Assembly (NCBI GenBank): GCA_005400705.1
Contig: GCA_005400705.1_4079.1
Strand: one strand, 5' to 3'
Source of the DNA: Escherichia coli
GTDB taxonomy: Bacteria > Pseudomonadota > Gammaproteobacteria > Enterobacterales > Enterobacteriaceae
Length of the DNA stretch: 64,000 bases
In this document: piece by piece, positions 14,960 through 27,004 of the stretch
Position numbering within the stretch: position 1 is the first letter of the stretch
How the letters are laid out: each line of letters starts with the position of its first letter
Notes under the pieces: generated by a model
Seen by the model: the letters and a program-made list of their open reading frames with translations, nothing else
The model's database searches: none
What the model was told of the DNA's origin: nothing
Position numbers and translations under genes: made by a program

Positions 14960-15018
14960 ATACTTGCAATTAGTTTTTAAACGCGTATAATGTTTTGCAT
15001 AGGGGGAGCGGTTCCCCT
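14960..15018 (+). promoter_or_regulatory. PeSL-type cassette
   Basis: aatacTTGCAAttag, TATAAT 14986-14991, hairpin ggggagcggttcccc. Confidence 0.55.
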
Positions 15019-15038
15019 GGTAACTAAGGAATAATAAA

Positions 15039-15275
15039 ATGCTTGAACAAATCAAATCAACGTCTTCGAATGTAACGGGAACGGTAGCACACTTTACTAG
15101 TGATGAATCGCGGGGCGTTCCCTATTGTGCTGTACATGTAAACACTGAGGGTAACTACTGGTTTACGGTTTACGGTTCATATTCATTTGGACGGCCAGGG
15201 CATCAAAAAATTCTGGATAAAGTACAGCCAACGGGTAAAAATATCACTGCTGAAATGTTTTATAAAAAATCATAA
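15039..15275 (+). CDS. Hypothetical protein; paralog of 13884-14117
   Basis: 78 aa ORF. Confidence 0.7.
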   Translation: MLEQIKSTSSNVTGTVAHFTSDESRGVPYCAVHVNTEGNYWFTVYGSYSFGRPGHQKILDKVQPTGKNITAEMFYKKS

Positions 15276-15340
15276 AGTACTTGCAATTAGTTTTTAGTAC
15301 TGTATAATATTTTACATCGCAAGGGGGAGCGGTTCCCCCT
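15276..15340 (+). promoter_or_regulatory. PeSL-type cassette
   Basis: aagtacTTGCAAttagtttttAGTACTgTATAAT, hairpin gggggagcggttccccc. Confidence 0.6.
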
Positions 15341-15359
15341 GGTAACTAAGGATAATCAA

Positions 15360-15659
15360 ATGAAAATTGCAATCATCGCCCTGGCTTTATCTGTTTCCTC
15401 TTTCGCTGTTAATGCGTCATTAGATGTAAGTAGTGAAAAATTCATTCAGTGCACTGTTGCAATGACCGATGAAAGTACTGGCGAGATTGTTTTAAAGGAT
15501 TTAGAGATCCAGCCCGAAGCATTTAAAAACGGGCCGTTCCATGAAGAAGACGAAAAAGGTAGCACGACAATTTATTACGATGCAAGTACTAAACGCGGTT
15601 CGGTCACTGTTATGGATACTGAGAAAGTAACTCATACTGGCGTTATTAATTGCCGTTGA
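15360..15659 (+). CDS. Small secreted or periplasmic protein (predicted signal peptide)
   Basis: 99 aa; N-terminus MKIAIIALALSVSSFAVNA is signal-peptide-like. Confidence 0.65.
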   Translation: MKIAIIALALSVSSFAVNASLDVSSEKFIQCTVAMTDESTGEIVLKDLEIQPEAFKNGPFHEEDEKGSTTIYYDASTKRGSVTVMDTEKVTHTGVINCR

Positions 15660-15680
15660 TAGATACTACGGGGTAACATC

Positions 15681-15911
15681 ATGACTAAGCGAATTGTTTT
15701 ACTTAACGAAAGCAGTACTACACAACTACTTAACGCCGTGCATTATGATATTGAAACGAGCGTTAATCTTATCAGTACTGTAGTACTGTTGGACACTGGA
15801 AAGGTCGCCAATGATAAAGCGATTGCAGGTATACTAACGGATCTTGAGCCTGGTAGCAGTGCACCAATAACGTTAAATGGTAAAGTGTTTAATATTTTAC
15901 TCACTGATTAA
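15681..15911 (+). CDS. Hypothetical protein
   Basis: 76 aa ORF after short gap, followed by a terminator. Confidence 0.6.
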   Translation: MTKRIVLLNESSTTQLLNAVHYDIETSVNLISTVVLLDTGKVANDKAIAGILTDLEPGSSAPITLNGKVFNILLTD

Positions 15912-15916
15912 GTACA

Positions 15917-15945
15917 TAGCCCACCTGGTGGGCTTTTTTGTTTTT
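15917..15945 (+). terminator. Rho-independent terminator
   Basis: agcccacc-t-ggtgggct then ttttttgtttttg. Confidence 0.6.
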
Positions 15946-15992
15946 GTAGTATCGTAGTACTGAGATACTTTGAAAATAGTTTTAAAAAATAG

Positions 15993-16020
15993 TTGACATT
16001 ACCGCAGAAAAGCGTAGAAT
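15993..16020 (+). promoter_or_regulatory. Sigma70-like promoter
   Basis: TTGACA 15993-15998, 16 nt, TAGAAT 16015-16020. Confidence 0.5.
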
Positions 16021-16029
16021 GTATTACAT

Positions 16030-16110
16030 CAAGACGGGGAGCACTAAGTAGACCGCCAGTAAGTCGAACGAAAAACTGGACACGTCGAGAAAACTTTGAT
16101 ACACTAATAA
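16030..16110 (+). ncRNA. Diverged third copy of the structured leader element
   Basis: agacggggagcactaagtagaccgccagtaagtcgaacgaaaaactggacacg shares gacgggga, agtaag and acgaaaaact with the element at 13071-13150. Confidence 0.25.
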
Positions 16111-16143
16111 ACGTAAACTAAACTTTAATTGAGGATTTATAAA

Positions 16144-16626
16144 ATGGCTAATGTAAAATCATTCATCAAAGCACTGGTAGCAAATGAAACTAACGTCGCG
16201 GCAGAGATCCTGGCTGATCTGGATAACGATACCATGAAAGCGGTACGCAATAATTTTAACATCGCTTATAGTACTGCGAAAGAACTACAAGCAAATAAAG
16301 CGGCAGAAATTGAAGCGGCAAAGGCGGCCCGTGAAGCAGAACTACAAGCAACAATTGAAAGTATCCAGGCGGCAGTAGTTGGATTGGATCTGGAAGTAGT
16401 TACAGAGATGGCACAAAAAGCCCTGGCGGTTAAGTATGGGGAAGATAAGCCGGAATCTAAGCCTAAAAAATGGATTCAAAAACGTGTAGCGGTAGTACTG
16501 GACAACGGGGAAGAATATCTGATTCCGGTGCGTGGTAACTGCATTGCGGTAGTACTGGATGCGATTAACTCCAGTGGTATGACTCGCGAGGAATGGATCG
16601 AAGCTCATCGCAAAGTTGAAGCATAA
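16144..16626 (+). CDS. Hypothetical protein with N-terminal coiled-coil
   Basis: Track ORF trimmed to ATG 16144 (MANVKSF); Ala/Glu-rich heptad-like stretch AAEIEAAKAAREAELQATIESIQAA; C-terminal internal repeat VAVVLDN/IAVVLDA. Confidence 0.65.
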   Translation: MANVKSFIKALVANETNVAAEILADLDNDTMKAVRNNFNIAYSTAKELQANKAAEIEAAKAAREAELQATIESIQAAVVGLDLEVVTEMAQKALAVKYGEDKPESKPKKWIQKRVAVVLDNGEEYLIPVRGNCIAVVLDAINSSGMTREEWIEAHRKVEA

Positions 16627-16645
16627 CAATTAAAGTACTGAATCA

Positions 16646-16678
16646 CTAGCCCACCTTAAACGGTGGGCTTTTTTGTGT
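16646..16678 (+). terminator. Rho-independent terminator
   Basis: agcccacc-ttaaac-ggtgggct then ttttttgtgttt. Confidence 0.65.
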
Positions 16679-16824
16679 TTATCGTTTACCAGGCCACCAG
16701 CACCGCCTAGAAACGATTCTAACGCATTAAACTGATTATCTGATGCATTGCCCTAGCTGGTGGCGTTAAGGCTGTAAGAACGCGATTGAGAGCGTTTAAA
16801 GTATTTTGCAAAAAGTAATAAAAA

Positions 16825-16885
16825 GTACTTGCACGATTAAGAGATTAGCGTATAATGTTTTACATCGAGAGGGGGAAACGGTTCT
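16825..16885 (+). promoter_or_regulatory. PeSL-type cassette (imperfect hairpin)
   Basis: aaaagtacTTGCACgat, TATAAT 16851-16856, GC-rich gggggaaacggttctcc. Confidence 0.5.
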
Positions 16886-16911
16886 CCTTCCAAATCAAAG
16901 GAATTAAAACA

Positions 16912-17139
16912 ATGGCTATCGTAATCACTCGCGTAACTGGTACTACTGGCAATTCTTCTACTGTTGCTGTAATTACTAATAAGAAAGGTGCGGAATTGCA
17001 TTTTGCAATGGATAAATGGGCCGTTAATGAGTTCGGTCAGTGGGCAAGTGTAGCATACATTGAAACCTATCAAGTGCCGTCGATTAGTTTAACTGATTTG
17101 GGCGTTGAGCGTATCCTTTGCCTGGATGAATTAAATTAA
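16912..17139 (+). CDS. Hypothetical protein
   Basis: Track ORF 16855-17139 trimmed to ATG 16912 (MAIVITRV); 75 aa. Confidence 0.65.
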   Translation: MAIVITRVTGTTGNSSTVAVITNKKGAELHFAMDKWAVNEFGQWASVAYIETYQVPSISLTDLGVERILCLDELN

Positions 17140-17142
17140 AAA

Positions 17143-17206
17143 AGTACTTGCAAAGTAAATCAGATAAAGTATAATACATTACATCAAGGGGAGAAATGGT
17201 TCTCCC
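17143..17206 (+). promoter_or_regulatory. PeSL-type cassette
   Basis: aaagtacTTGCAAagt, TATAAT 17170-17175, hairpin gggagaa-atgg-ttctccc. Confidence 0.6.
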
Positions 17207-17225
17207 TGATAATGAGGAAACTAAT

Positions 17226-17369
17226 ATGAAAACTTGTCAATGTGGTAAAAAATCTATTACTGGTTTAAAGCGGGGCGTTGCACTTTGCCAGTACCATTAT
17301 AATTTACAAGTATGGGGTAAAGAATGGGCCGACCAGGTGGAAGCAGCAAAGAAAGCAAAAAGTAAGTAA
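17226..17369 (+). CDS. Small Cys-rich protein (possible zinc ribbon)
   Basis: 47 aa hand-translated (below track cutoff): MKTCQCGKKSITGLKRGVALCQYHYNLQVWGKEWADQVEAAKKAKSK; PeSL and SD upstream. Confidence 0.5.
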   Translation: MKTCQCGKKSITGLKRGVALCQYHYNLQVWGKEWADQVEAAKKAKSK

Positions 17370-17384
17370 AAATATTATCACAGT

Positions 17385-17420
17385 ACTATTGACATAGTTT
17401 GATAGTACTGGCATAATAGA
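17385..17420 (+). promoter_or_regulatory. Sigma70-like promoter with AGTACT flanking -35 and in spacer
   Basis: cAGTACTatTGACAtagtttgatAGTACTggCATAAT (TTGACA 17389-17394, CATAAT 17412-17417). Confidence 0.5.
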
Positions 17421-17450
17421 TTTTATCAAGACAACTAAGAGGAAATTAAA

Positions 17451-17795
17451 ATGGCTAATATCAACACTATCGCAAAACAAAATATCAACCTGTCTTCTGT
17501 TGAAGTTGTACATATTGCCGCTCGGCGTTGGTTCCAGGCTTCATATGGTAACACTTATTTCTCTTTAAGTGTAGACGTAGAAATTGATGGTAATTTTATT
17601 GAAGTAGTAAACGTGCCGTTCCAATATGGATACGGGGATCACTTTGACACTGTAGCAATGGAAGAATTTAGCAAGGTTATTAATATGGAAGATAAGGAGT
17701 TTACACGCGGATCGTACCTTTCACGTTTTTGCCGTGATAATAATATCACTGTTTACAGTTCGGTAACTGATGTTAAACGCAAAAAAGATCTTTAA
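17451..17795 (+). CDS. Hypothetical protein; paralog of 23420-23743
   Basis: 114 aa; shared C-terminus (VTDVKRKKDL vs YYDVKRKKDM) and internal GYG motifs. Confidence 0.7.
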   Translation: MANINTIAKQNINLSSVEVVHIAARRWFQASYGNTYFSLSVDVEIDGNFIEVVNVPFQYGYGDHFDTVAMEEFSKVINMEDKEFTRGSYLSRFCRDNNITVYSSVTDVKRKKDL

Positions 17796-17875
17796 TTCGC
17801 TTTACTTTATGCAGATACTTTGATATAGTGTCTGCATAGGGGAAAGAAATTAAATTAACTTAAGAGGAACGTATA

Positions 17876-18145
17876 ATGAAAAATATCAGTACTTTAATCG
17901 ATGCAGGTACACATGTTCGGCGGTCAATGGTTGCAACCAGTACTACAAAACAAGTAGCGAGCGGTTATCTTGTATTTGTGCACGATGGTAAACTCCTGGA
18001 ACGTTCAATCAATTTTGATGTTAAAAACAATTGCCGTTTTATTATCTTTCGCCGTGAACAATATAAGATCGACATTCCAGCGAAGCCCATTAGCGGTGCG
18101 TACAACGTGCAATCATTGTTTGAGCGTCAACCATACACCTATTAA
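17876..18145 (+). CDS. Hypothetical protein
   Basis: 89 aa ORF after SD aagagga. Confidence 0.6.
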   Translation: MKNISTLIDAGTHVRRSMVATSTTKQVASGYLVFVHDGKLLERSINFDVKNNCRFIIFRREQYKIDIPAKPISGAYNVQSLFERQPYTY

Positions 18146-18196
18146 TCAAAACATCGTTAGCGGTTGATTTAGGCCGCTTATATTGAGGATTATACC

Positions 18197-18469
18197 ATGA
18201 ACGTTAATCAAGTACTGAATGAGATCGAAAGCATCATTAAACCGATGAAGCGTACTGATGCTATGTTAACACCGGAAGAATGCCGCCTATATGAGCGTTA
18301 TAGCGTCGAACAAGTCCAGGCAATGGCTATGGCTACCACAGCCGTTAAACCGCCTGAGAATGCGTTACAGGACGTTACAGGGGATTATATCATCAATCCA
18401 GTACTAGGGAAGATGGCTGCAATCACCGAAGATCAACAAGACTACTTAAGCCAGTACTTAAAAGGTTAA
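18197..18469 (+). CDS. Hypothetical protein
   Basis: 90 aa ORF after SD tgagga. Confidence 0.6.
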   Translation: MNVNQVLNEIESIIKPMKRTDAMLTPEECRLYERYSVEQVQAMAMATTAVKPPENALQDVTGDYIINPVLGKMAAITEDQQDYLSQYLKG

Positions 18470-18474
18470 TTAAT

Positions 18475-18684
18475 ATGCTTACTGTACAGGATAAGATCGA
18501 CATCTTAAAGGTTAATATGTATGTGATTGATGCCGTACCTGGTAAAGTATTTGCATACGATGATAGTACTGTAAGCGATTTCTACTATAGCCAGGACGTG
18601 GGGGATCTTTCTGTACAGTCGGTTATTGAAAACGTAGTTAATGCAGCGTATGAGCATTTACTTTCAAATAGTACTTGCAATTAG
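18475..18684 (+). CDS. Hypothetical protein
   Basis: 69 aa ORF. Confidence 0.55.
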   Translation: MLTVQDKIDILKVNMYVIDAVPGKVFAYDDSTVSDFYYSQDVGDLSVQSVIENVVNAAYEHLLSNSTCN

Positions 18685-18733
18685 TTTTTAAACGCGTATA
18701 ATGTTTTACATGAAGGGGAGAAATGATTCTCCC
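18670..18733 (+). promoter_or_regulatory. PeSL-type cassette
   Basis: agtacTTGCAAttag, TATAAT 18697-18702, hairpin ggggagaa-atga-ttctcccc. Confidence 0.6.
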
Positions 18734-18753
18734 CACTAATTAAGGAATATGAA

Positions 18754-18900
18754 ATGAAAGCATCAAAAAAGAGTAATACCAAGAAAGCATGTTCACCTTT
18801 CGCTGGGGTATTCCCTTTACGTTTCGTTGATGAAGTGGTTTCCTACCCGCCGGGCCTTACTCCTGAGATGGTAGAAAGTTTGCGTAAATCTAAAAAATAG
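18754..18900 (+). CDS. Small basic protein
   Basis: 48 aa hand-translated: MKASKKSNTKKACSPFAGVFPLRFVDEVVSYPPGLTPEMVESLRKSKK; PeSL and SD aaggaa upstream. Confidence 0.5.
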   Translation: MKASKKSNTKKACSPFAGVFPLRFVDEVVSYPPGLTPEMVESLRKSKK

Positions 18901-18963
18901 TACTTGCAATTAGTTTTCAGTACTGTATAATGTTTTACATGAAGGGGAGAAATGATTCTCCCC
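18899..18963 (+). promoter_or_regulatory. PeSL-type cassette
   Basis: tacTTGCAAttagttttcAGTACTgTATAAT, hairpin ggggagaa-atga-ttctcccc. Confidence 0.6.
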
Positions 18964-18981
18964 AATAACAGGAGAAACAAA

Positions 18982-19134
18982 ATGAAACAATACAACGCTC
19001 GGTTTGATGTTACTATCGGTAACGGCAAAGGTCAATTCTCTTTCAGTACTCGCAAAAGTTATACAGAAAACTTCCTGCGTAATTGTGCACTGACCGCCGC
19101 TCAAATTAAACATTACTTTCAGGCTAAAAAATGA
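18982..19134 (+). CDS. Small protein
   Basis: ATG 18982 (MKQYNARFD) after SD caggag; 50 aa. Confidence 0.55.
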   Translation: MKQYNARFDVTIGNGKGQFSFSTRKSYTENFLRNCALTAAQIKHYFQAKK

Positions 19135-19220
19135 AATCATTAGCTTACTATAGTTCGGCCCTGGTCGGTACATTGATCGCGGCATTGTTAGTAACCTATC
19201 TATTCTTTATGGTGATTTAA
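19131..19220 (+). CDS. Small hydrophobic (single transmembrane) peptide
   Basis: 29 aa MKSLAYYSSALVGTLIAALLVTYLFFMVI; ATG overlaps previous stop (ATGA). Confidence 0.4.
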   Translation: MKSLAYYSSALVGTLIAALLVTYLFFMVI

Positions 19221-19364
19221 ATGAATCCAACAGGTTTAAATTATAAAAGTTGTTCGGCGTTTACGAAAGCAAATAAAGCGAATGCACGTAAAGCGAAAGT
19301 ACAGGAATACATCAAGCAAGGCATGACGCGAAAGGCGGCGATTCTAAAAGCTAAAAATAAATGA
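19221..19364 (+). CDS. Small basic peptide
   Basis: 47 aa MNPTGLNYKSCSAFTKANKANARKAKVQEYIKQGMTRKAAILKAKNK; ATG adjacent to previous stop. Confidence 0.4.
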   Translation: MNPTGLNYKSCSAFTKANKANARKAKVQEYIKQGMTRKAAILKAKNK

Positions 19365-19373
19365 AAAAAGTGG

Positions 19374-19401
19374 TTGACTCCGGTCAGCCATTTTGCTATT
19401 A
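19374..19401 (+). promoter_or_regulatory. Promoter inside the repeated 100 bp element (copy 1)
   Basis: TTGACT 19374-19379, 16 nt, TATTAT 19396-19401; followed by agcccacagggtgcataagtgtatc. Confidence 0.45.
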
Positions 19402-19489
19402 TATATTCATTGAGAGATAGCTCACTAGCCCACAGGGTGCATAAGTGTATCTATTATATAAGTATTGAGTACTGAAAACTATTTTTAAA

Positions 19490-19554
19490 AAGTACTTGCA
19501 AACTATCTCAATTGGCGTATAATGTTTTACATCGCAAGGGGAAACGGTTTCCCC
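19490..19554 (+). promoter_or_regulatory. PeSL-type cassette
   Basis: aaagtacTTGCAAact, TATAAT 19518-19523, hairpin ggggaaac-g-gtttcccc. Confidence 0.6.
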
Positions 19555-19574
19555 TGGTAATAAGGAAACGAATC

Positions 19575-19916
19575 ATGACTATCTCAATTGCTCAATCTAA
19601 CTTTGAAAACGAAATCATCGCCCAGGCACTGCGTTTAAATGATGGTCGGGCCGAAATTAATTACGGTTTCAATTCAGGCGGTTGCGAAAAATATCAGTAC
19701 TTTGTAACGGCTGATGGCGGTGTCCTGGGGATCAATACAGTTATTGTAAACATTCAGAAAATTAATTTCAATGATCCAGAAGATAGCCAGTTTTACATCA
19801 CGGGCGTGAACGTGAACTATGAGGATGATTATCTAACTGATGATCACACTGGCGAGAAGTTAGAAAGTGCATACGGTGAAGATGATTATCAGTCCGGTCC
19901 AGAAGATTTTGAATAA
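19575..19916 (+). CDS. Hypothetical protein
   Basis: Track ORF 19512-19916 trimmed to ATG 19575 (MTISIAQ); 113 aa. Confidence 0.65.
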   Translation: MTISIAQSNFENEIIAQALRLNDGRAEINYGFNSGGCEKYQYFVTADGGVLGINTVIVNIQKINFNDPEDSQFYITGVNVNYEDDYLTDDHTGEKLESAYGEDDYQSGPEDFE

Positions 19917-19927
19917 TATTAAAAAAT

Positions 19928-19990
19928 AGTTTGACAATAGATTATAGTACTGTATAATAAGTTACATCAAGGGGAGAAATGATTCTCCCC
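19928..19990 (+). promoter_or_regulatory. PeSL-type cassette with TTGACA -35
   Basis: tagTTTGACAatagattatAGTACTgTATAAT, hairpin ggggagaa-atga-ttctcccc. Confidence 0.6.
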
Positions 19991-20010
19991 ACTAACAAAG
20001 AGAAAACAAA

Positions 20011-20223
20011 ATGGCTAATATCTGCACTGTACTGAAAAATGCAAAACAAGTTTTATTTTCTGATCATGAAAATTTCAACAAGGATATTACGGGCGTTCGG
20101 AATATCAAAGATGTAAAAAGTGTTATGGGTATCTATTGCAATATGAAACGTGTTGGTACGTTCGGCGACAAAGTACTATACCAGGCAGGGGATTATAACT
20201 TTACATTAACCATTATCAATTAA
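20011..20223 (+). CDS. Hypothetical protein
   Basis: 70 aa ORF (MANICTVLKN). Confidence 0.65.
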   Translation: MANICTVLKNAKQVLFSDHENFNKDITGVRNIKDVKSVMGIYCNMKRVGTFGDKVLYQAGDYNFTLTIIN

Positions 20224-20237
20224 AATATATTACCAGT

Positions 20238-20272
20238 ACTATTAACAATGATTGATAGTACTGGCATAATAA
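20238..20272 (+). promoter_or_regulatory. Promoter variant
   Basis: ccAGTACTaTTAACAatgattgatAGTACTggCATAAT. Confidence 0.4.
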
Positions 20273-20314
20273 CTTTTATCAACAGTAGTTAACTTAACAA
20301 AAGAGAGAAACAAA

Positions 20315-20458
20315 ATGATCGCACTAGATTCATTCATCGACGCAGTACTGGCAAAAACTGGCGAGGATCTGACCGCAGAACAATACGCGATGATCGAACA
20401 ATGTCAGCAAAACGGTAAATCGGTGAAAGATACTGTTAAGATTATCCGCAAGATGTAA
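20315..20458 (+). CDS. Small acidic protein
   Basis: 47 aa hand-translated MIALDSFIDAVLAKTGEDLTAEQYAMIEQCQQNGKSVKDTVKIIRKM; SD aagagag. Confidence 0.45.
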   Translation: MIALDSFIDAVLAKTGEDLTAEQYAMIEQCQQNGKSVKDTVKIIRKM

Positions 20459-20461
20459 GAT

Positions 20462-20494
20462 TATAGCCCACTGGTTAACGCTGGTGGGCTATAA
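20462..20494 (+). other. Long hairpin (10 bp stem) without a T-run
   Basis: tatagcccac-tggttaacgctg-gtgggctata; contains GCTGGTGG. Confidence 0.4.
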
Positions 20495-20563
20495 TTCATT
20501 ACCCTATACAATGCCAGTACTCAACCGTTTATCTCGTTAGAATGCGTTACAGGACGTTTACCA

Positions 20564-20761
20564 ATGATTAGCATGAAATCAGTACAAAAACAAATAGAAA
20601 CATTATCAAAAATTAAACGTAAACAGTACTCGTTAGAATATACAATCAATGGTAACTATCATCTAATGAAAGAGAATAATTTTATCGTCATTGATGAATC
20701 ATTGCAAGTTATTAGTATAGTACTGAAAGCATTAATCAATGACAGAAAAAAATTAAAATAA
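20564..20761 (+). CDS. Hypothetical protein
   Basis: 65 aa ORF. Confidence 0.5.
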   Translation: MISMKSVQKQIETLSKIKRKQYSLEYTINGNYHLMKENNFIVIDESLQVISIVLKALINDRKKLK

Positions 20762-20763
20762 TC

Positions 20764-20796
20764 TATTGACAATATCCTCCAGTACTGGCATAATAC
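20764..20796 (+). promoter_or_regulatory. Sigma70-like promoter
   Basis: TTGACA 20766-20771, 17 nt spacer with ccAGTACTgg, CATAAT 20789-20794; followed by about 290 bp of ORF-free leader. Confidence 0.5.
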
Positions 20797-20859
20797 TTAC
20801 ATCAAGACGAGAACGTCACCAACCCATAGGGTGCACAAATGTAACTATATAATATCGAT

Positions 20860-20950
20860 CAATAAATGATCAAAAAAGTACTGGATCAATTTAGCATAAG
20901 GCGTATAATTCTGATCAATTCTTGATCAAAGGCAATATACGCAGTTGAAT
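20860..20950. repeat. GATC / tGATCAa cluster
   Basis: Five GATC sites within about 85 bp (cgatcaataaatgatcaa...ggatcaat...ctgatcaattcttgatcaa). Confidence 0.55.
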
Positions 20951-21090
20951 TTATATAGACAGTACAAAGGCGTTACTATCCGTGGTAATGCTGGTGGATA
21001 TGTAGTATCATATGGTTTGAATAAGATAAACACTAGTAGTATTATTGTAGCATTACAGTACTATAGTATTTTTATAATGAGGTTAAAATA

Positions 21091-21348
21091 ATGGCAGTAG
21101 GATACGCGAAAGACGGGGCCGAACAAGACGAGATTCATGCAGTGATTCAGGCCGCCGTTAACCACGCTAGAAAGCAAATTAACGCACAAAGAGAATCACT
21201 GGTACATTGCCTCGACTGCGGCGATAAAATTCCTGAGAATCGACGCCAGGCCGTTATAGGGTGCATGTATTGTATTACTTGCCAGGAGGATCATGATAGT
21301 ACTTTTAAAAGAGATCCGCGTAATTGTTGGCATAGATCTATGAGATAA
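21091..21348 (+). CDS. TraR/DksA-family C4 zinc-finger protein
   Basis: 85 aa; CLDCGDKIPENRRQAVIGCMYCITC fits CxxCG-x2-IP-x2-R...CxxC of the TraR/DksA zinc finger. Confidence 0.65.
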   Translation: MAVGYAKDGAEQDEIHAVIQAAVNHARKQINAQRESLVHCLDCGDKIPENRRQAVIGCMYCITCQEDHDSTFKRDPRNCWHRSMR

Positions 21349-21352
21349 AAAG

Positions 21353-21386
21353 TAATTGACAGTACTGAAAGATAGTGTATAATGTT
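21353..21386 (+). promoter_or_regulatory. Sigma70-like promoter
   Basis: aaTTGACAgtactgaaagatagtgTATAATgttttatatc. Confidence 0.5.
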
Positions 21387-21412
21387 TTATATCTTAACTG
21401 AGGATAGAAATC

Positions 21413-21769
21413 ATGGGAATACAACATATCACGCGTACTACTGACAATGGCGAGATCACTGGTTATCAAGTACAGGGCAAAGTAGCACAATTGCAGTACT
21501 GGTTTGTTAAACGTGGAATCATTGCACCGGATCTTGATTATGACCGTGTAGCGTTTATTGATTCTCTTTATGTTGATCCTGATAGTCGGGGCAATGGTGA
21601 AGGTAACGAATTAATGAATGCCTTTATCGATGCCGCCGATGATTCAGATTGTATCATCTTAGAATGCGATACGGGAGAAGATAACGCCTTTAATCTTAAA
21701 GAATGGTACGAAGGTTTCGGATTCGAGGTATTGATAGATAGTGAATATCCTATCATGATTTTATCATAG
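21413..21769 (+). CDS. Small GNAT-like acetyltransferase (putative)
   Basis: 118 aa; LYVDPDSRGNGEGNELMNAF resembles GNAT motif A (V-x-P-x2-RG-x-G-x-G). Confidence 0.45.
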   Translation: MGIQHITRTTDNGEITGYQVQGKVAQLQYWFVKRGIIAPDLDYDRVAFIDSLYVDPDSRGNGEGNELMNAFIDAADDSDCIILECDTGEDNAFNLKEWYEGFGFEVLIDSEYPIMILS

Positions 21770-21830
21770 TACTTGCATTTAGTTTTCAGTACTGTTATAG
21801 TACTTGCATCAAGGGGAAACATCTTCCCCT
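21768..21830 (+). promoter_or_regulatory. PeSL-type cassette with weak -10
   Basis: tagtacTTGCATttagttttcAGTACTgttatag, hairpin ggggaaac-atc-ttcccc. Confidence 0.45.
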
Positions 21831-21847
21831 ACTAAGAGGAAATAAAA

Positions 21848-22036
21848 ATGGAAAACTTATCAAGTATTTTAGTACAAGATGATTTCGGTAATCCTGGAAG
21901 TGCTATCATTGTTCGGGGTAATAAAGCAACGTTTGTTATTGCTGGTGGACCCGTACAGCGTAGCATTAAAAATAATGCTGTTACCATTAATAATGTACGC
22001 TATCGCTTAGATAAAGAATTGATTCATAAACTGTAA
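21848..22036 (+). CDS. Hypothetical protein
   Basis: 62 aa ORF after SD agagga. Confidence 0.6.
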   Translation: MENLSSILVQDDFGNPGSAIIVRGNKATFVIAGGPVQRSIKNNAVTINNVRYRLDKELIHKL

Positions 22037-22039
22037 AAA

Positions 22040-22104
22040 AGTACTGGACAATAGATTATAGTACTGTATAATAAGTTACATGAAGGGGAGAAATGATTCT
22101 CCCC
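22040..22104 (+). promoter_or_regulatory. PeSL-type cassette
   Basis: agtacTGGACAatagattatAGTACTgTATAAT, hairpin ggggagaa-atga-ttctcccc. Confidence 0.55.
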
Positions 22105-22122
22105 AGTACTGAGGAAAGAAAA

Positions 22123-22335
22123 ATGCAAGGTCAACTAATCGTTCGTAAATGGTCTGATACTAACGCTAAACCGTGGGATGTACAATACATCGGCCCCAAT
22201 GGTGAATCCAGATATCAACCAGGTGTAACGCATAGTACTGAGCAATTCGCCGCCGCTCATCGTGAACGTCTGTTACAATCAATGCAGCAAGGTTCCGGTG
22301 AAAAATTCATTCAGGATCATTGGCTGAAAGATTAA
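22123..22335 (+). CDS. Hypothetical protein
   Basis: ATG 22123 (MQGQLIVRK) after SD gaggaaag; 70 aa. Confidence 0.65.
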   Translation: MQGQLIVRKWSDTNAKPWDVQYIGPNGESRYQPGVTHSTEQFAAAHRERLLQSMQQGSGEKFIQDHWLKD

Positions 22336-22337
22336 AA

Positions 22338-22401
22338 AGTACTTGCACAGTACTGAATAAAGTGTATAATGTTTTATATCGAGAGGGGAATAGTTCCCCT
22401 C
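22338..22401 (+). promoter_or_regulatory. PeSL-type cassette
   Basis: aagtacTTGCACAGTACTGaataaagtgTATAAT, hairpin gaggggaa-tag-ttcccctc. Confidence 0.6.
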
Positions 22402-22421
22402 CTAACAAAAAGGAAAGTATA

Positions 22422-22595
22422 ATGATCCAAGTAGAATTATCAGTACTGAAAGATCTATTTTATCGGTTAGGTACTAATGGCGAGTATCCTAAAAGTGATA
22501 CCGCAAAACTTTTTGTATCACTCGACTTATGGCAACGCGAACAATTAGTAATGTCGTGGCGTAAAGGTAAAGCAGATCGCGAGGTGAAAGCATGA
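22422..22595 (+). CDS. Small protein
   Basis: ATG 22422 (MIQVELSVL) after SD aaggaa; 57 aa. Confidence 0.55.
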   Translation: MIQVELSVLKDLFYRLGTNGEYPKSDTAKLFVSLDLWQREQLVMSWRKGKADREVKA

Positions 22596-22741
22596 AAGAA
22601 TTCTTATTTGAAGTAGTGTTTCAAGGTGTCGGTAATAACCAACTGATTCGATCAAGTGGTTATAATGTTAACCAGGCATGGAATAACATTAAACAAATGT
22701 ACCCTAACGCTATCACCTATCGCAACCCGAAAGAAGTTTAA
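22592..22741 (+). CDS. Small protein
   Basis: 49 aa hand-translated MKEFLFEVVFQGVGNNQLIRSSGYNVNQAWNNIKQMYPNAITYRNPKEV; ATGA overlap with previous stop. Confidence 0.45.
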   Translation: MKEFLFEVVFQGVGNNQLIRSSGYNVNQAWNNIKQMYPNAITYRNPKEV

Positions 22742-22758
22742 AAATAATTGAAAAAGGG

Positions 22759-22787
22759 ATTGACTCCGGTCAGTCCCTTTGCTATTA
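22759..22787 (+). promoter_or_regulatory. Promoter inside the repeated 100 bp element (copy 2)
   Basis: gggaTTGACTccggtcagtccctttgcTATTAT; -35 sits in near-palindrome gggattgac/gtcagtccc. Confidence 0.5.
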
Positions 22788-22874
22788 TATACGCATAGAA
22801 ACAAATCAGCCCACCGGGTGCATAAATGTATCTATTGTTTGCTGGTGGCTAGTACTGAAAACTATTTTTAAAAA

Positions 22875-22906
22875 GTACTTGCATTGTACTTAGAATCAAG
22901 TATAAT
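22875..22906 (+). promoter_or_regulatory. PeSL-type promoter driving structured leader (copy 2)
   Basis: aaagtacTTGCATtgtacttagaatcaagTATAAT. Confidence 0.55.
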
Positions 22907-22915
22907 GTTTTACAT

Positions 22916-22990
22916 CAGGACGGGGAACGAAATAAGTAACTTCCCGTTAAGTAGCCCAGGAGTAAGGCACACGAAAAACTCCCCTGATAA
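22916..22990 (+). ncRNA. Conserved structured RNA element, copy 2
   Basis: Identical over about 90 bp to 13071-13160. Confidence 0.35.
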
Positions 22991-22996
22991 AATAGT

Positions 22997-23024
22997 TTGA
23001 CAATAGAAAGTAAACGAGTATAAT
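22997..23024 (+). promoter_or_regulatory. Second promoter after the structured element
   Basis: TTGACA 22997-23002, 16 nt, TATAAT 23019-23024. Confidence 0.5.
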
Positions 23025-23057
23025 ACTTACATCAACCACTGATAAGGAAACATTAAA

Positions 23058-23333
23058 ATGCGGATTCTACTGACAGCTAACGAAATCGAACAAGTACTGA
23101 CTACTAACCTGGAACAATGGAAACGTGATGCAGATATCCAGGCGGTTCAATGGCTTAACGATAAGTTAACGCCGGATGACTTAAGCAAGATTGTAGATCC
23201 TCAATTCTACGAAGATATCCACGACACCGCGTTAAGCGTCGAGGATGTACTTGATAAGCACTACATTGATACTGATTTACAGGTTTACGGTCGTAAAAAC
23301 TTTATCACTATCCACGACATTTACAATAATTAA
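23058..23333 (+). CDS. Hypothetical acidic protein
   Basis: 91 aa ORF after SD aaggaaa. Confidence 0.65.
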   Translation: MRILLTANEIEQVLTTNLEQWKRDADIQAVQWLNDKLTPDDLSKIVDPQFYEDIHDTALSVEDVLDKHYIDTDLQVYGRKNFITIHDIYNN

Positions 23334-23398
23334 GTATTGACAAAGTATCTTAGTACTGTATAATAGTTTACATCAAGTGAGGGGAAACGGTTCCCCTC
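23334..23398 (+). promoter_or_regulatory. PeSL-type cassette (tattgacaaagta class)
   Basis: gTATTGACAAAGTAtcttAGTACTgTATAAT, hairpin gaggggaaac-g-gttcccctc. Confidence 0.6.
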
Positions 23399-23419
23399 CT
23401 AACAAAGAGAGAAATAAAA

Positions 23420-23743
23420 ATGGCTATGATCCTTACCCAGAAAGTAGAACTGAAAATTGTAACCTCCTTTGACATTAAAGTTAATCGCTGGACTGATCGG
23501 AACGGCAATACTTACCACTCTTGCTACGTGTCTGCATTGATTGGTGATCGTTGGGAAGACCTGGGACACGAAACTTTTACATACGGTTACGGTACGCAAG
23601 GCGAATACACGGGCTTGGAGATCATTAAAGAAACCGTTATAGGTTTCAACCCGAAAGAAAAAGTTATTCACCGCATCGAAAAAGAGATTAACAAAGAAAT
23701 AACAGTTCGCTACTACGATGTAAAACGTAAGAAAGACATGTAA
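23420..23743 (+). CDS. Hypothetical protein; paralog of 17451-17795
   Basis: 107 aa ORF. Confidence 0.7.
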   Translation: MAMILTQKVELKIVTSFDIKVNRWTDRNGNTYHSCYVSALIGDRWEDLGHETFTYGYGTQGEYTGLEIIKETVIGFNPKEKVIHRIEKEINKEITVRYYDVKRKKDM

Positions 23744-23761
23744 TAGAATCCATTTAAAGTA

Positions 23762-23796
23762 CTATTTGACATTACACAGATAGTACTTTATAATAG
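23762..23796 (+). promoter_or_regulatory. Sigma70-like promoter (homolog of 12135-12170)
   Basis: aaAGTACTaTTTGACAttacacagatAGTACTtTATAAT. Confidence 0.55.
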
Positions 23797-23838
23797 ACTC
23801 TAGCTTGTAGTACTAACTTAACTAATAGGATGTATACC

Positions 23839-24234
23839 ATGATTACTAAATTCTACGCTACCCGTGAAGCTGCCCGTATTGTTGCACGCGAGGAAGGAGC
23901 AGCATTTAAAGACATGGGCAAAGATGCACCGAAAGGCCAACGCTGGGCCGTACAGTTCAAAGAGATCTCTGATATTGTGAATTCACCGGAGCCAGTACTG
24001 ACAGCAGCAGAACAGAAGAAAGCTGATGAACTGTCAGCAGTTCTTAACGCTCAAGATGACTTTATCGCGGGTTCTGATATTAAAGTTTCCGTAAATTCGA
24101 ATGCATGGACTCACGCGGATCATCTGGCTAACTTGAAGCGTCCAAGTGTACTGATTCGCAACCAACGAGAGATCCGCCACGACCGCAAGGGAAACAGTGT
24201 TACTGTATTCAGTAAACGCCGCCAGGTTATCTAA
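23839..24234 (+). CDS. Hypothetical protein; paralog of 12207-12473 with central insertion
   Basis: ATG 23839 (MITKFYATREAARIV...); 131 aa. Confidence 0.65.
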   Translation: MITKFYATREAARIVAREEGAAFKDMGKDAPKGQRWAVQFKEISDIVNSPEPVLTAAEQKKADELSAVLNAQDDFIAGSDIKVSVNSNAWTHADHLANLKRPSVLIRNQREIRHDRKGNSVTVFSKRRQVI

Positions 24235-24256
24235 TAACTTGCAGTACTAACAACAC

Positions 24257-24284
24257 GGCGGGTTCAGTTCCCGCCTTTTTTTTA
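24257..24284 (+). terminator. Rho-independent terminator
   Basis: ggcggg-ttcagtt-cccgcc then tttttttt. Confidence 0.7.
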
Positions 24285-24298
24285 TAGGATAAACTAAA

Positions 24299-24553
24299 AT
24301 GATGAAGGTACAACTATCTAAAGATAATATCTTGCGGGTACACTATAAAGCACCACAGAGAATCATCACAAAGGCCGTACAGCTTGCTAATGAGTTTATT
24401 AATGGTAGTCTATTACCCAGGAAGTTAAGCAACGGGAAACTACGTGTTATCGATGTAGACACTAACAATAGAATAGTAATTGAGAGTACTGGAAAAATTA
24501 ATCTATATGAACACCAACAATACAATAAAAAAATAAAACTAATATCACGTTGA
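24299..24553 (+). CDS. Hypothetical protein
   Basis: 84 aa ORF. Confidence 0.5.
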   Translation: MMKVQLSKDNILRVHYKAPQRIITKAVQLANEFINGSLLPRKLSNGKLRVIDVDTNNRIVIESTGKINLYEHQQYNKKIKLISR

Positions 24554-24580
24554 CAGTACTCAATTGTTTTAGTATTATGT
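24548..24580 (+). promoter_or_regulatory. Sigma70-like promoter (duplicate module A)
   Basis: TTGACAgtactcaattgttttagTATTAT; near-identical to 24824-24856. Confidence 0.5.
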
Positions 24581-24606
24581 ACACATACCAACACGGGAGA
24601 AACAAA

Positions 24607-24825
24607 ATGAAATTATCTAAAATCGAAAAGAAAACTATTGATGAAGCAGTTAAGCACGGTTATACCTTTCGTAATGATTCACATTTTACCAATTTTCAAC
24701 AAGGGTATCGTACTATTAAAAAACTAATTGACAAAGGTTTATTAGTTGAAGTCAATAACGGCAATGGCATTGAGTATCAACCAACACAGGACGCATTTTA
24801 TTTTAAGAAATATAATATTATCTAA
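24607..24825 (+). CDS. Hypothetical protein
   Basis: Track ORF 24550-24825 trimmed to ATG 24607 (MKLSKIEKK); 72 aa. Confidence 0.6.
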   Translation: MKLSKIEKKTIDEAVKHGYTFRNDSHFTNFQQGYRTIKKLIDKGLLVEVNNGNGIEYQPTQDAFYFKKYNII

Positions 24826-24856
24826 TTGACAGTACTCAAATGTTTTAGTACTATAT
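24824..24856 (+). promoter_or_regulatory. Sigma70-like promoter (duplicate module B)
   Basis: TTGACAgtactcaaatgttttagTACTAT; same leader accaacacggg(g/a)a(a/g)aaacaaaATG as at 24580-24606. Confidence 0.5.
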
Positions 24857-24883
24857 GTACATACCAACACGGGGAAAAACAAA

Positions 24884-25126
24884 ATGATTACTTTAGAAAA
24901 ACGTATCAAAGAAACTACATCGCTGGTGGAACTGTTAACAGTACTGAAATGTAAAACAACACCATTCAGCACGCCGGACTTTATTAATATGGTTGATGTT
25001 AATGGTCGCTATCGCATCACGGTCGAACAAGGAGCGGCGAAAGTATTCAGTACTAAAAACACCAAGGAAGTGATCCACGCCGTTAATGTTAAAAAAGTAG
25101 TTGCCATTGATAGTAAAGTACTGTAA
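24884..25126 (+). CDS. Hypothetical protein
   Basis: 80 aa ORF. Confidence 0.6.
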   Translation: MITLEKRIKETTSLVELLTVLKCKTTPFSTPDFINMVDVNGRYRITVEQGAAKVFSTKNTKEVIHAVNVKKVVAIDSKVL

Positions 25127-25157
25127 TATAGTTTCATTAACTCAAGGAGAACATGCA

Positions 25158-25742
25158 ATGCGTAATTATACTAAATTCATCCGTACACTGTCAGAAATGG
25201 AAACCAACAAAGAGATCCTTTCAGCTTGTCGGTTAGCTGGCCTGGAGATCATCGGTGCTGGTTCTTCCCGTATAGTATTCGCTTTAAATGATCGGTTAGT
25301 GATTAAGGTCGCGAATTGTGATGCGGGTGTAGAACAAAATGAAACTGAATGTAAGGTATGGAATTTTTTAGACTATGACCGCCCTCAGTTGAAACAGTAC
25401 TTTGCAAAGGTGCATATGCATTTATGCGATCCTGATAATATGTTTATCGTTATGGATCGGTTGAGTACTGCAAGCAAAGGCAGTGTGAAGCACGTTAACG
25501 CGTGCAATGAATTAAAGTACAATATTAAACGTAATGCCATTGAACGCCAGCACCGCTTTGCTGATGCACTACAACACGTTGATGATACCTTATCAACACT
25601 AACTATAAGAGATATCAGAAAACAGAATATCGGCCAGGATCGCAACGGCTTGATTAAAGTACTTGATTACGGTTTAACCCGCAATATCTGGAATCAGTAC
25701 TATAAAAAGCGTGATGTAAAAGCCGTAACTATAACACGATAA
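25158..25742 (+). CDS. Putative minimal protein-kinase-like protein
   Basis: Track ORF trimmed to ATG 25158 after SD aaggaga; 194 aa with kinase-like motifs in canonical order: IGAGSSRIVF, VIKV, FIVMDRL, RDIRKQN, VLDYG. Confidence 0.45.
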   Translation: MRNYTKFIRTLSEMETNKEILSACRLAGLEIIGAGSSRIVFALNDRLVIKVANCDAGVEQNETECKVWNFLDYDRPQLKQYFAKVHMHLCDPDNMFIVMDRLSTASKGSVKHVNACNELKYNIKRNAIERQHRFADALQHVDDTLSTLTIRDIRKQNIGQDRNGLIKVLDYGLTRNIWNQYYKKRDVKAVTITR

Positions 25743-25760
25743 AAAAGATTAAAAAAGGGA

Positions 25761-25789
25761 TTGACTCCGGTCAGTCCCTTTGCTATTAT
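25761..25789 (+). promoter_or_regulatory. Promoter inside the repeated 100 bp element (copy 3)
   Basis: gggaTTGACTccggtcagtccctttgcTATTAT. Confidence 0.5.
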
Positions 25790-25872
25790 ATATGCATGAA
25801 AACAATCTAACCCACCGGGTGCATAAATGTATCTATTATATAAGTATTCAGTACTGAAAACTATTTTTAAAA

Positions 25873-25937
25873 AGTACTTGCATACTATCTCAATTCGCGT
25901 ATAATGTTTTATATCGAGAGGGGGAAATGGTTCTCCC
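25873..25937 (+). promoter_or_regulatory. PeSL-type cassette
   Basis: aaagtacTTGCATact, TATAAT 25900-25905, GC-rich hairpin agggggaa-atgg-ttctccct. Confidence 0.6.
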
Positions 25938-25959
25938 TGGTACATTAAGGAATAAAATC

Positions 25960-26367
25960 ATGACTACTACCAATCAAGCTCGGAACATCACCAACGATAA
26001 AAATCATGCTGCAATGGTCGCTGGATACATTGAAGCTATGCAATTCAGTACTGTATACAATGAGAACGGCGATTACCTGGAAGATTATGAATTATCAGAG
26101 CAAGCCCATCAAGCGGCAGTGATTGCATGTTCACGTTTCCTTGCTGTACATGGTGAAGATATGGAAACAGTACAAAAACACCATAATCCTGATTATACTT
26201 ATAATCATGCAGGTCATGATCTCTTTCTTACTCGCGAAGGTCACGGCACTGGCTTTTGGGATCGTGATATCGGTCACTATGACGATGTATTCACTAAGTA
26301 CTGCGAAGAAATCAACGTTTGCGATCCCTATGTAGGCGATGATAATCTAATCTATATGGGCGAATAA
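25960..26367 (+). CDS. Hypothetical protein (His/Asp-rich)
   Basis: Track ORF 25927-26367 trimmed to ATG 25960 (MTTTNQARN); 135 aa. Confidence 0.65.
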   Translation: MTTTNQARNITNDKNHAAMVAGYIEAMQFSTVYNENGDYLEDYELSEQAHQAAVIACSRFLAVHGEDMETVQKHHNPDYTYNHAGHDLFLTREGHGTGFWDRDIGHYDDVFTKYCEEINVCDPYVGDDNLIYMGE

Positions 26368-26369
26368 AA

Positions 26370-26432
26370 GTATTTGACAAAGTATATCAGTACTGTATAA
26401 TAGTTTACATCAAGGGGAGAATAGTTCTCCCC
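26370..26432 (+). promoter_or_regulatory. PeSL-type cassette (tattgacaaagta class)
   Basis: TATTTGACAAAGTAtatcAGTACTgTATAAT, hairpin ggggagaa-tag-ttctcccc. Confidence 0.6.
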
Positions 26433-26456
26433 ACACCAATAAAAGGAAACAAAATT

Positions 26457-26729
26457 ATGTCCAGCTACTCCGCTACTATGATCATTAAAGATATGAACGG
26501 TAATCCTACTTCTGCTGGTGGATCATTTGGAAATATTAACTTAGATGGGCGGTTATCCATGCAATCAGCCATTGATGCAGCGAAAGAAGTTTTTAAGAAT
26601 GAATGTACTGTAAGTAAGCTGGATTATATGGGATTCGCTATCGAGAAAACTAATCGTTTTGTGAACTACAAAAATCCACTGATGATCGATACTAACCTGA
26701 AAGCAAACGAAGTGGAATACTTATTATGA
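26457..26729 (+). CDS. Hypothetical protein
   Basis: 90 aa ORF after SD aaaggaaa. Confidence 0.65.
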   Translation: MSSYSATMIIKDMNGNPTSAGGSFGNINLDGRLSMQSAIDAAKEVFKNECTVSKLDYMGFAIEKTNRFVNYKNPLMIDTNLKANEVEYLL

Positions 26730-26917
26730 CAGTTGAAGAAGTTAAAAAAGTACTGGCAGTACTACGCTATCATAATCATTGTAAGGTGAAGAATGATCCT
26801 GATTATGTTGATTCATCCCTGGAGGAAGACACCTTAAACGCGATAAGCCATATGCAAACATTAGCAAAGCGTATGACCGAAAAGAATAGGCCGGACTATA
26901 TCGGAAATAAAATTTAA
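26726..26917 (+). CDS. Hypothetical protein
   Basis: 63 aa ORF; ATGA overlap with previous stop. Confidence 0.55.
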   Translation: MTVEEVKKVLAVLRYHNHCKVKNDPDYVDSSLEEDTLNAISHMQTLAKRMTEKNRPDYIGNKI

Positions 26918-26918
26918 A

Positions 26919-26986
26919 AAGTACTTGCATTGTAGTTAGATTAACGTATAATGTTTTATATCGAGAGGGGGAAATGGTTTCCCCTC
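26919..26986 (+). promoter_or_regulatory. PeSL-type cassette
   Basis: aaagtacTTGCATtgtag, TATAAT 26947-26952, hairpin gagggggaaa-tg-gtttcccctc. Confidence 0.6.
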
Positions 26987-27004
26987 AAGTCCAGGAGATA
27001 CACC

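Follow-up and report, generated by a model that had tools for sequence, protein, structure and literature searches.

The 64,000-nt stretch of DNA analysed in this study (hereafter, the window) comes from contig GCA_005400705.1_4079.1 of an Escherichia coli assembly and represents a jumbo coliphage of the genus Asteriusvirus (121Q/PBECO4-like). The locus of interest includes a gene for a zinc-finger protein of the TraR/DksA family and, upstream of it, five clustered GATC sites, which are arranged as two 15-bp dyads of the form GATCA-N5-TGATC and one GATCA half-site. In total, 42 phage records match the segment 20400–21800, with Escherichia phage vB_EcoM_JNE01 as the best hit (98.9%), followed by fEgEco12, 121Q, PBECO4 and others; all of these phages are jumbo myoviruses of the same genus with genomes of about 350 kb. 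In phage vB_Ec-M-J, the homologous stretch is found at 11.7–13.1 kb, within an annotated direct terminal repeat of 21,525 bp, and the terminal repeat of fEgEco12 (20,993 bp) has been confirmed experimentally (PMC13070987). The locus lies about 11 kb inside the direct terminal repeat of about 21 kb, at a distance of about 11 kb from either repeat end, and is therefore present in two copies per virion genome, in an early-type region. The terminal repeat itself is an array of about 50 very small genes, the majority of which have their own sigma-70 promoter (TTGACA/TATAAT). For genome-wide counts, the complete genome of 121Q (348 kb) was assembled from seven pieces.

The gene at 21091 had been predicted from the sequence to encode a TraR/DksA C4 zinc finger, and profile searches bear this out: its product matches PF01258 (zf-dskA_traR; 36.9 bits, cut-off 24.9) and phrog_54 (E-value, 8 × 10−19). 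The translation and its alignment to YbiI reveal the cysteine pattern CxxC-X17-CxxC (C40-LD-C43 and C61-IT-C64). The best matches among solved structures are E. coli YbiI (2kgo; E-value, 2.4 × 10−11) and TraR of the F plasmid (6n57_M; E-value, 5 × 10−6); the latter is the TraR chain from a complex with RNA polymerase, to which the phage product is related by sequence similarity only. The annotation is not new, as several relatives in GenBank are already labelled as DksA-like zinc-finger proteins.

The stretch between the promoter and the zinc-finger gene had been described in the original prediction as an untranslated leader of 290 bp. Comparison with related phages contradicts this, since the segment is an optional cassette that has its own promoter(s) and a conserved gene of 48 codons (Table 1). 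Of the related phage records, 27 contain the cassette and seven lack it. In a more sensitive search, these seven Asteriusvirus records aligned to only half of the segment 20700–21360, in two pieces separated by about 330 bp in the query, and an alignment of 13 relatives, in which three of the seven cassette-less records were checked by sequence, demonstrated that exactly 330 bp are missing from phAPEC6, G17 and UE-S1. In all three, the 65-aa gene runs directly into the zinc-finger gene, its stop codon overlapping the start codon of the latter (TAATG). The 10-bp repeat TTAAAATAAT occurs three times in the whole window, and two of the copies mark the ends of the cassette. Judging from the alignments, the cassette sits between two early genes that are otherwise translationally coupled; on the same grounds, sister phages must express the zinc-finger gene without it, and the framing of the segment as a leader is wrong.

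The open reading frame (ORF) at 20945–21091 is a real coding gene because the substitutions are strongly biased by codon position (1:2:11 relative to phage Turkey3 and 1:2:8 relative to 121Q), the frame remains open and the similarity of the protein is retained across the strongly diverged DNA of PBECO4-type phages, and the stop codon overlaps the ATG of the zinc-finger gene (TAATG). The start codon is TTG in the window and GTG in PBECO4-type phages. Neither the window nor 121Q was found to encode a paralogue of the 48-aa protein. With this gene in the segment, the untranslated stretch counted from the predicted transcription start of promoter P1 (about 20801) amounts to about 144 nt, not 290.

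Table 1. Features of the cassette, its flanks and related sites; positions refer to the window unless another genome is named.
Feature	Position	Strand	Basis or remark
Upstream 65-aa early gene	20564–20761	+	ORF list; phrog_36844 (E-value, 2.7 × 10−46)
Left 10-bp direct repeat, TTAAAATAAT	20753–20762	+	Cassette boundary; indel edge exactly here
Optional 330-bp cassette (promoter(s), GATC dyads, 48-aa gene)	20763–21092	+	Alignment of relatives
Promoter P1: TTGACA (20766–20771), 17-nt spacer, CATAAT (20789–20794), TG upstream	20766–20794	+	Scan, 11/12
Conserved box, AACCCAYNGGGTGCAYAAATGTA	20818–20843	+	About 25–30 nt 3' of P1
27-nt direct repeat, copy 1: TATAAT-N3-GATCAAT-N3-TGATCAAA	20848–20874	+	Repeat analysis
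Dyad 1, GATCAATAAATGATC (GATC sites 1 and 2)	20857–20871		Centre about 52 bp 5' of the predicted P2 start
Predicted promoter P2: TGGATC, 16-nt spacer, TATAAT, A-tract before	20882–20909	+	Register of paralogous modules; predicted start near 20916
27-nt direct repeat, copy 2	20904–20930	+	Repeat analysis
Dyad 2, GATCAATTCTTGATC (GATC sites 4 and 5)	20913–20927		Covers about −4 to +12 relative to the predicted P2 start, an operator position; not present in the PBECO4-type allele
48-aa gene, TTG start	20945–21091	+	phrog_38664 (E-value, 3.7 × 10−31); homologous to 121Q gp293
Right 10-bp direct repeat, TTAAAATAAT	21083–21092	+	Cassette boundary
TraR/DksA-family C4 zinc-finger gene, 85 aa	21091–21348	+	PF01258, phrog_54, structure matches
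Third dyad, GATCA-W5-TGATC	121Q 215908–215922		Between a terminator hairpin and gene 467; only 121Q copy outside the cassette
Eight promoter-plus-box units	10778–10834 (−), 12917–12995 (−), 14862–14930 (−), 19374–19450 (+), 20766–20843 (+), 22760–22830 (+), 25761–25831 (+), 28206–28276 (+)	as marked

The promoter recognised earlier at the head of the segment (P1) is indeed present, matches the consensus at 11 of 12 positions with an upstream TG, and is kept in all of the cassette-bearing relatives. The window contains at least eight related promoter-plus-box units (+ strand, five; − strand, three), and the first 90 nt of the cassette are a member of this family. In every unit, a sigma-70 promoter is followed 25–30 nt later by the invariant core ACCCAYNGGGTGC(AY)AA. 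In the four paralogues on the + strand, the unit leads into a second promoter (TTGCAx-16-TATAAT), behind which come a 5' hairpin, a ribosome-binding site and a gene. Based on the register and spacing, which are the same as those of the TTGCAA-16-TATAAT promoter in paralogous modules, the cassette is predicted to contain a second, internal promoter (P2), with a −35 hexamer that reads TGGATC in the window and TTGATC in PBECO4-type phages. The scan predicted no terminator between P1 or P2 and the two genes. A candidate leftward promoter at consensus level (TTGATC-18-TATAGT, only 9/12) was also recorded at 20844–20873 (−); its −35 is the reverse complement of the second GATCAA, and it would yield RNA antisense to the P1 leader and the box. 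Three of the promoter-plus-box units are oriented against all of the neighbouring genes, and the units may give rise to short non-coding transcripts or hold a regulatory box acting at the protein or RNA level; a search of 15000–27000 against Rfam at E ≤ 1 returned no relevant match, including for these units.

All of the five clustered GATC sites noted previously were found, at 20857, 20868, 20884, 20913 and 20924. The cluster spans 71 bp rather than about 85 bp, and the description of several sites as TGATCAA stands: all five read GATCAA on the + strand, and three of them read TGATCAA. The next densest group of five GATC in the window occupies 245 bp. Comparison with local expectation demonstrated that none of the 300 order-3 Markov simulations of the window placed five sites within 71 bp (the smallest span was 85 bp). 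The window contains 144 GATC sites as against 198 expected from dinucleotide shuffles, and in 121Q the tetranucleotide is depleted two-fold (620 sites compared with about 1091–1182 expected). The homologous cluster is the densest group of five GATC in the 121Q genome (the next one spans 210 bp), and GATCAA pairs closer than 123 bp are found nowhere in that genome except in the cluster. On the other hand, the cluster ranks only 11th of all 256 tetramers by the scan p-value (about 0.003), and the terminal repeat is the most GATC-rich part of 121Q (49 sites per 10 kb; mean, about 18). Taken by itself, the tetramer count is therefore only moderately significant, and it is the extended motif that carries the signal; the significance of the cluster thus relies on GATC having been chosen in advance and on this extended motif.

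Within the extended motif, GATC site 3 (20884–20887) is a solitary GATCA half-site (20884–20888) that falls in the −35 hexamer of P2, and the other four sites form the two dyads listed in Table 1. Each copy of the 27-nt direct repeat holds one 15-bp dyad; the TATAAT of copy 1 has no recognisable −35. Dyad 1 is identical at 14 of 15 positions in the diverged PBECO4-type allele. This allele also contains exactly two dyads, which are adjacent (GATCAAAAAATGATC-T-GATCAATACTTGATC), with none 3' of P2, and the right arm of its second dyad supplies the TTGATC −35 of P2. Exactly two dyads were present in every cassette-bearing phage examined. The placement of the second dyad elsewhere in the PBECO4 lineage suggests a turnover of sites in which their number is maintained. 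In the stretch bounded by the two TATAAT hexamers, the window and PBECO4 agree in 23 of the 24 bases of dyad 1 and the GATCAATTT half-site, compared with 12 of the 26 interspersed bases (Fisher p = 1.3 × 10−4, a value that is optimistic because the motif was defined after the data had been seen). Of the GATC letters in common with the PBECO4 allele, 12 of 12 are conserved, as against 23 of 38 other positions (p = 0.01).

The only two copies of the exact dyad in the 64-kb window are those of the cluster, and only one further match appears when one mismatch is allowed. The 121Q genome harbors three dyads, all of them intergenic, whereas 0.2 are expected under an order-3 Markov model, and none of the 60 simulations reached three. 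The third dyad is found in 121Q, PBECO4, the cassette-less phAPEC6 and fEgEco12; its arms are invariant, while the 5-nt spacer varies and always consists of A/T (AAAAA, TATTT, AAAAT). The inner flanks are A and T in every dyad and the outer flanks vary, and the symmetry axis therefore coincides with the dyad centre, as expected of a site read by a dimer. A scan of IMG/VR with the 27-nt unit was uninformative, as 121Q itself was the sole match. The 15-bp dyad is conserved, over-represented, and annotated in no record.

The earlier suggestion of a protein-binding array has gained support from the resolution of the cluster into dyads, their conservation, the turnover of sites and the third site with invariant arms. 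Because the invariant 5-bp arms lie one helical turn apart, the A/T spacer is free, the number of sites is kept despite turnover, and the sites are placed at about −52, over the −35 or over +1, it is quite possible, if short of probable, that a dimeric DNA-bending protein uses the dyads as operator-type sites and thereby modulates P2. The host nucleoid protein Fis is the most likely candidate. Once bound, the protein would modulate initiation at the internal promoter P2 from one site upstream, at about −52, and another over the start site in the window type or over the −35 in the PBECO4 type, and expression of the 48-aa gene and of the downstream TraR-like gene might be tuned to the growth state of the host. 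The GATC content would be a consequence of the half-site sequence, yet it would render the sites methylatable by Dam. The dyads agree with the 15-bp Fis consensus GNtYAaWWWtTRaNC (PMC2816674, PMC6907758) at 12–13 of the 13 specified positions and with the high-affinity form GNTYAAAWTTTRANC at 10–12 of 13, and the Fis core (G−7 ... C+7, with Y−4 A−3 and T+3 R+4) is present in all of the dyads (GATCA ... TGATC). The centre is composed only of A/T in dyad 1, in the first PBECO4 dyad and in the third site, while dyad 2 and the second PBECO4 dyad have one central C. A global protein of the host would also explain why the dyad is found at only three of the many promoters of the genome. For a general repressor of early shut-off, many early promoters of 121Q would be expected to carry the dyad, and only three promoters do, so this candidate was rejected. 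A Fur box and P1 pac, both compared by eye, were discarded on spacing and location. Strict consensus scans of 20600–21100 revealed no site for DnaA, IHF, FNR, CRP, OxyR, Lrp or H-NS, no oriC 13-mer and no T4 late promoter.

Several points weigh against the operator reading, with Fis as the protein and P2 as its target. Apart from the optimistic Fisher test, the two dyad copies lie in a 27-nt duplication and are possibly of shared ancestry, hence not fully independent. The −35 of P2 in the window matches the consensus at only 3 of 6 positions, below the scan threshold of 4/6. According to published work, the central C in dyad 2 and in the second PBECO4 dyad should weaken Fis binding. The generic Fis consensus GNTYAWWWWWTRANC is not enriched in 121Q (three matches compared with about 3.7 expected), and the excess is specific to the GATCA arms, which Fis would not require; in a genome that avoids GATC two-fold, such an excess points to a reader of GATC itself. 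A search of the literature for promoters or transcriptomes of Asteriusvirus yielded nothing usable.

A reader of this kind is the premise of a Dam/SeqA epigenetic switch, in which the activity of P2 would depend on the methylation of the GATC pairs 11 bp apart and of the site in the −35, whether by a direct effect or by binding of SeqA to hemimethylated pairs after replication; the small gene and the TraR-like gene would then be expressed differently from phage DNA that is incoming, replicating or remethylated. Methylation-dependent control is known from IS10 pIN, Mu mom and, with SeqA, lambda pR. The two-fold depletion of GATC genome-wide, yet with five sites kept in 71 bp, the full conservation of the GATC letters shared with PBECO4, the restriction of the excess to GATCA rather than generic Fis-type arms, and the presence of one GATC in the P2 −35 hexamer in both lineages are all in keeping with such a switch. 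The two pairs, at their 11-bp spacing, lie on one face of the helix with at least two GATC within 31 bp, and SeqA reportedly requires paired GATC on one helix face, as is said to have been found by Brendler and Austin in 1999. In addition, 121Q gp417 is a Dam-family methyltransferase (PF05869; 110.8 bits) with an NPPY motif, and the homologous gene position would be about 4.5 kb beyond the end of the window. The specificity of this enzyme is putative, though, and no strict consensus of OxyR or Lrp, the usual partners in Dam switches, is present in 20600–21100. The conservation of the inner flank in every arm (GATCA/TGATC), with a variable outer flank, argues for a dimer reading 5-bp half-sites and not for a four-base reader. 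The sites are Dam targets, and the sequence speaks neither for nor against a methylation-dependent reading of them, which we consider rather unlikely. The fEgEco12 study used ClaI and other enzymes, none of them diagnostic for Dam, and hence carries no information on methylation. A combination of the two mechanisms appears improbable: the GATCA-W5-TGATC dyads would be operators at which occupancy by a dimer of host or phage origin and methylation by Dam are mutually exclusive, forming an epigenetic timer that tells incoming, replicating and remethylated genomes apart and gates a TraR-like modifier of host RNA polymerase. It is likewise improbable that the same reader, as this timer would have it, acts at a second, unlinked promoter (121Q position 215908). 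A separate observation is that 121Q also encodes a C5-cytosine methyltransferase (gp91).

The cluster might also have no function of its own and have arisen incidentally, through local duplication of a 27-nt '−10 plus downstream' unit and through recombination between promoter modules that are paralogous. The two copies of one 27-nt direct repeat indeed hold four of the five GATC, the palindromic nature of GATC automatically generates apparent dyads, and the terminal repeat is a mosaic of recombining promoter modules whose GATC density, the highest in the genome, makes the cluster only marginally significant against the local rate; moreover, the cassette is dispensable and the cluster is 11th among all tetramers. 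A mere by-product is nevertheless unlikely, as dyad 1 and the half-site stand out by their conservation, the rest of the segment being about 46% identical between the lineages, the PBECO4 lineage has its second dyad at another position, an unlinked third dyad retains its arms and varies in its spacer in four phages, and three dyads are found where 0.2 are expected. Invariant stems with variable loops would fit an RNA hairpin as well (GAUCA-loop-UGAUC), and each dyad might then act near the 5' end of the P1/P2 transcripts as an mRNA stabiliser or processing signal. In the paralogous modules, a GC-rich hairpin immediately follows the P2 −10. The predicted P2 start is where dyad 2 begins, a TATAAT precedes each of the two dyads at a distance of 3 nt, and dyad 1 has a folding energy of −4.1 kcal/mol (z = −4.0). 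Still, the hairpins are weak (−4.1 and −5.7 kcal/mol), with z = −0.95 for the dyad 2 segment and z = −1.95 for the whole leader, and the Rfam search described above revealed no match. The PBECO4 allele has no hairpin after P2, its second dyad being 5' of the −10 and hence outside P2 transcripts, and the third site directly follows a terminator, all of which makes an RNA-level element quite improbable. A replication origin or packaging signal built from methylatable GATC repeats, by analogy with oriC, P1 oriR or P1 pac with its TGATCA hexamers, can hardly be entertained. The likeness is superficial and limited to AT-rich intergenic DNA with clustered (T)GATCA, unique in the genome, whereas no DnaA box or oriC-type 13-mer is found in 20600–21100. 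This role was rejected because at least seven viable sister phages lack the cassette and the site is about 11 kb inside the repeat, not at its terminus. The locus shares repeated TGATCA Dam-target hexamers with P1 pac and differs from it in being dispensable, non-terminal and otherwise arranged.

Other features of the terminal repeat were recorded in the course of the analysis. The GNAT acetyltransferase gene (21413–21769) located 3' of the zinc-finger gene is another variable unit, and an unrelated small gene takes its place in PBECO4, G17 and Salmonella SD phages. Composite hairpin-promoters are present at 19367–19402 and 22753–22788, where the 5' arm of a terminator-like hairpin with a 12-bp stem includes a TTGACT −35 and TATTAT comes after the hairpin. 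The window contains 278 copies of the palindrome AGTACT compared with about 21.5 expected (e.g., at 20719, 20781, 20877, 21057, 21298 and 21361), and its extended form CAGTACTG occurs 71 times compared with 0.6 expected. In 121Q, 903 copies of AGTACT were counted (118 expected), and no hexamer is more strongly over-represented than CAGTAC (9.5-fold). AGTACT is densest in the terminal repeat and is also about 6-fold enriched inside long ORFs in all three codon phases; in promoters, it stands at fixed offsets of 27 and 7 nt before TATAAT, with no wider consensus. It is abundant in the loci of the more distant phages fENko-Kae01 and EJP2, and not in a T4-like phage. SlmA was rejected as a reader of AGTACT, as the flanks are C/G-reversed relative to GTGAGTACTCAC, and a literature search on the CAGTACTG motif yielded nothing usable. 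An imperfect tandem array with a period of 8 bp (CTARACGG; also scored at 16, 24 and 48) occupies 10496–10595 and yields the strongest tetramer clusters of the window (GGCT, CGGC, CTAG). When coordinates are mapped to fEgEco12 from sequence matches, this array is probably situated within the terminal repeat, about 0.9 kb from a left boundary that is itself inferred.

Compared with known systems, the dyad array may be an unannotated example of a familiar kind of element, namely an operator or nucleoid-protein site, possibly a methylation-sensitive one. As with Fis sites in sigma-70 promoters, such as those upstream of rrn P1, 15-bp dyads with an A/T-rich centre lie upstream of and overlap an early promoter of the strong type. 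Unlike typical Fis sites, all of the phage arms are of the single variant GATCA and two of the sites have a central C; binding of Fis is putative. Clustered regulatory GATC with one site in a promoter hexamer and pairs on the same helix face are, in turn, shared with IS10 pIN, Mu mom, pap, agn43, lambda pR, oriC and P1 oriR, and the phage, which grows in a Dam+ host and has its own Dam-family enzyme, resembles Dam-sensitive and SeqA-bound systems in this respect as well. It differs from the Dam switches in having no OxyR or Lrp consensus, in its conserved fifth base, which makes a 5-bp half-site, and in the setting, the early region of a lytic jumbo phage. Should the methylation-sensitive reading be true, the array would join the rare cases in which a strictly lytic phage is under epigenetic control; otherwise, it would be an ordinary operator or nucleoid-protein site.

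The gene downstream has its counterparts in TraR of the F plasmid, E. coli YbiI and phage TraR/DksA-like proteins, with which it shares the PF01258 domain, the CxxC-X17-CxxC pattern, an acidic N-terminal segment and a similarly small size. Gopalkrishnan et al. are said to have shown in 2017 that such features in TraR support binding in the secondary channel of RNA polymerase. The closest solved relative of the phage protein is YbiI, the role of which is unclear, and binding of polymerase by the phage protein is putative. The dyad is a candidate handle on how a TraR-like putative polymerase-binding factor is coupled to host physiology, through Fis, or to the methylation state of DNA.

As to the cassette as a whole, it invites comparison with the promoter-early stem-loop (PeSL) cassettes of T4-type phages (PMC2839356, PMC4122927). 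It was rejected as a PeSL because its boundary is the gene-junction repeat TTAAAATAAT, 10 bp in length, and not a PeSL repeat, and because P1 (20766–20794) has no stem-loop; the setting, the long direct terminal repeat of a Rak2-like jumbo phage, is different too. In common with PeSL regions, the small genes arrayed here are non-essential and have one strong sigma-70-like promoter apiece, and the neighbouring modules at 19367–19402 and 22753–22788 combine a stem-loop with a promoter. As in the shuffling of PeSL in T4-type phages, close relatives differ by the gain or loss of a promoter-plus-ORF unit, and the gain and loss of the cassette show how the early gene array of Asteriusvirus terminal repeats acquires and loses its units.

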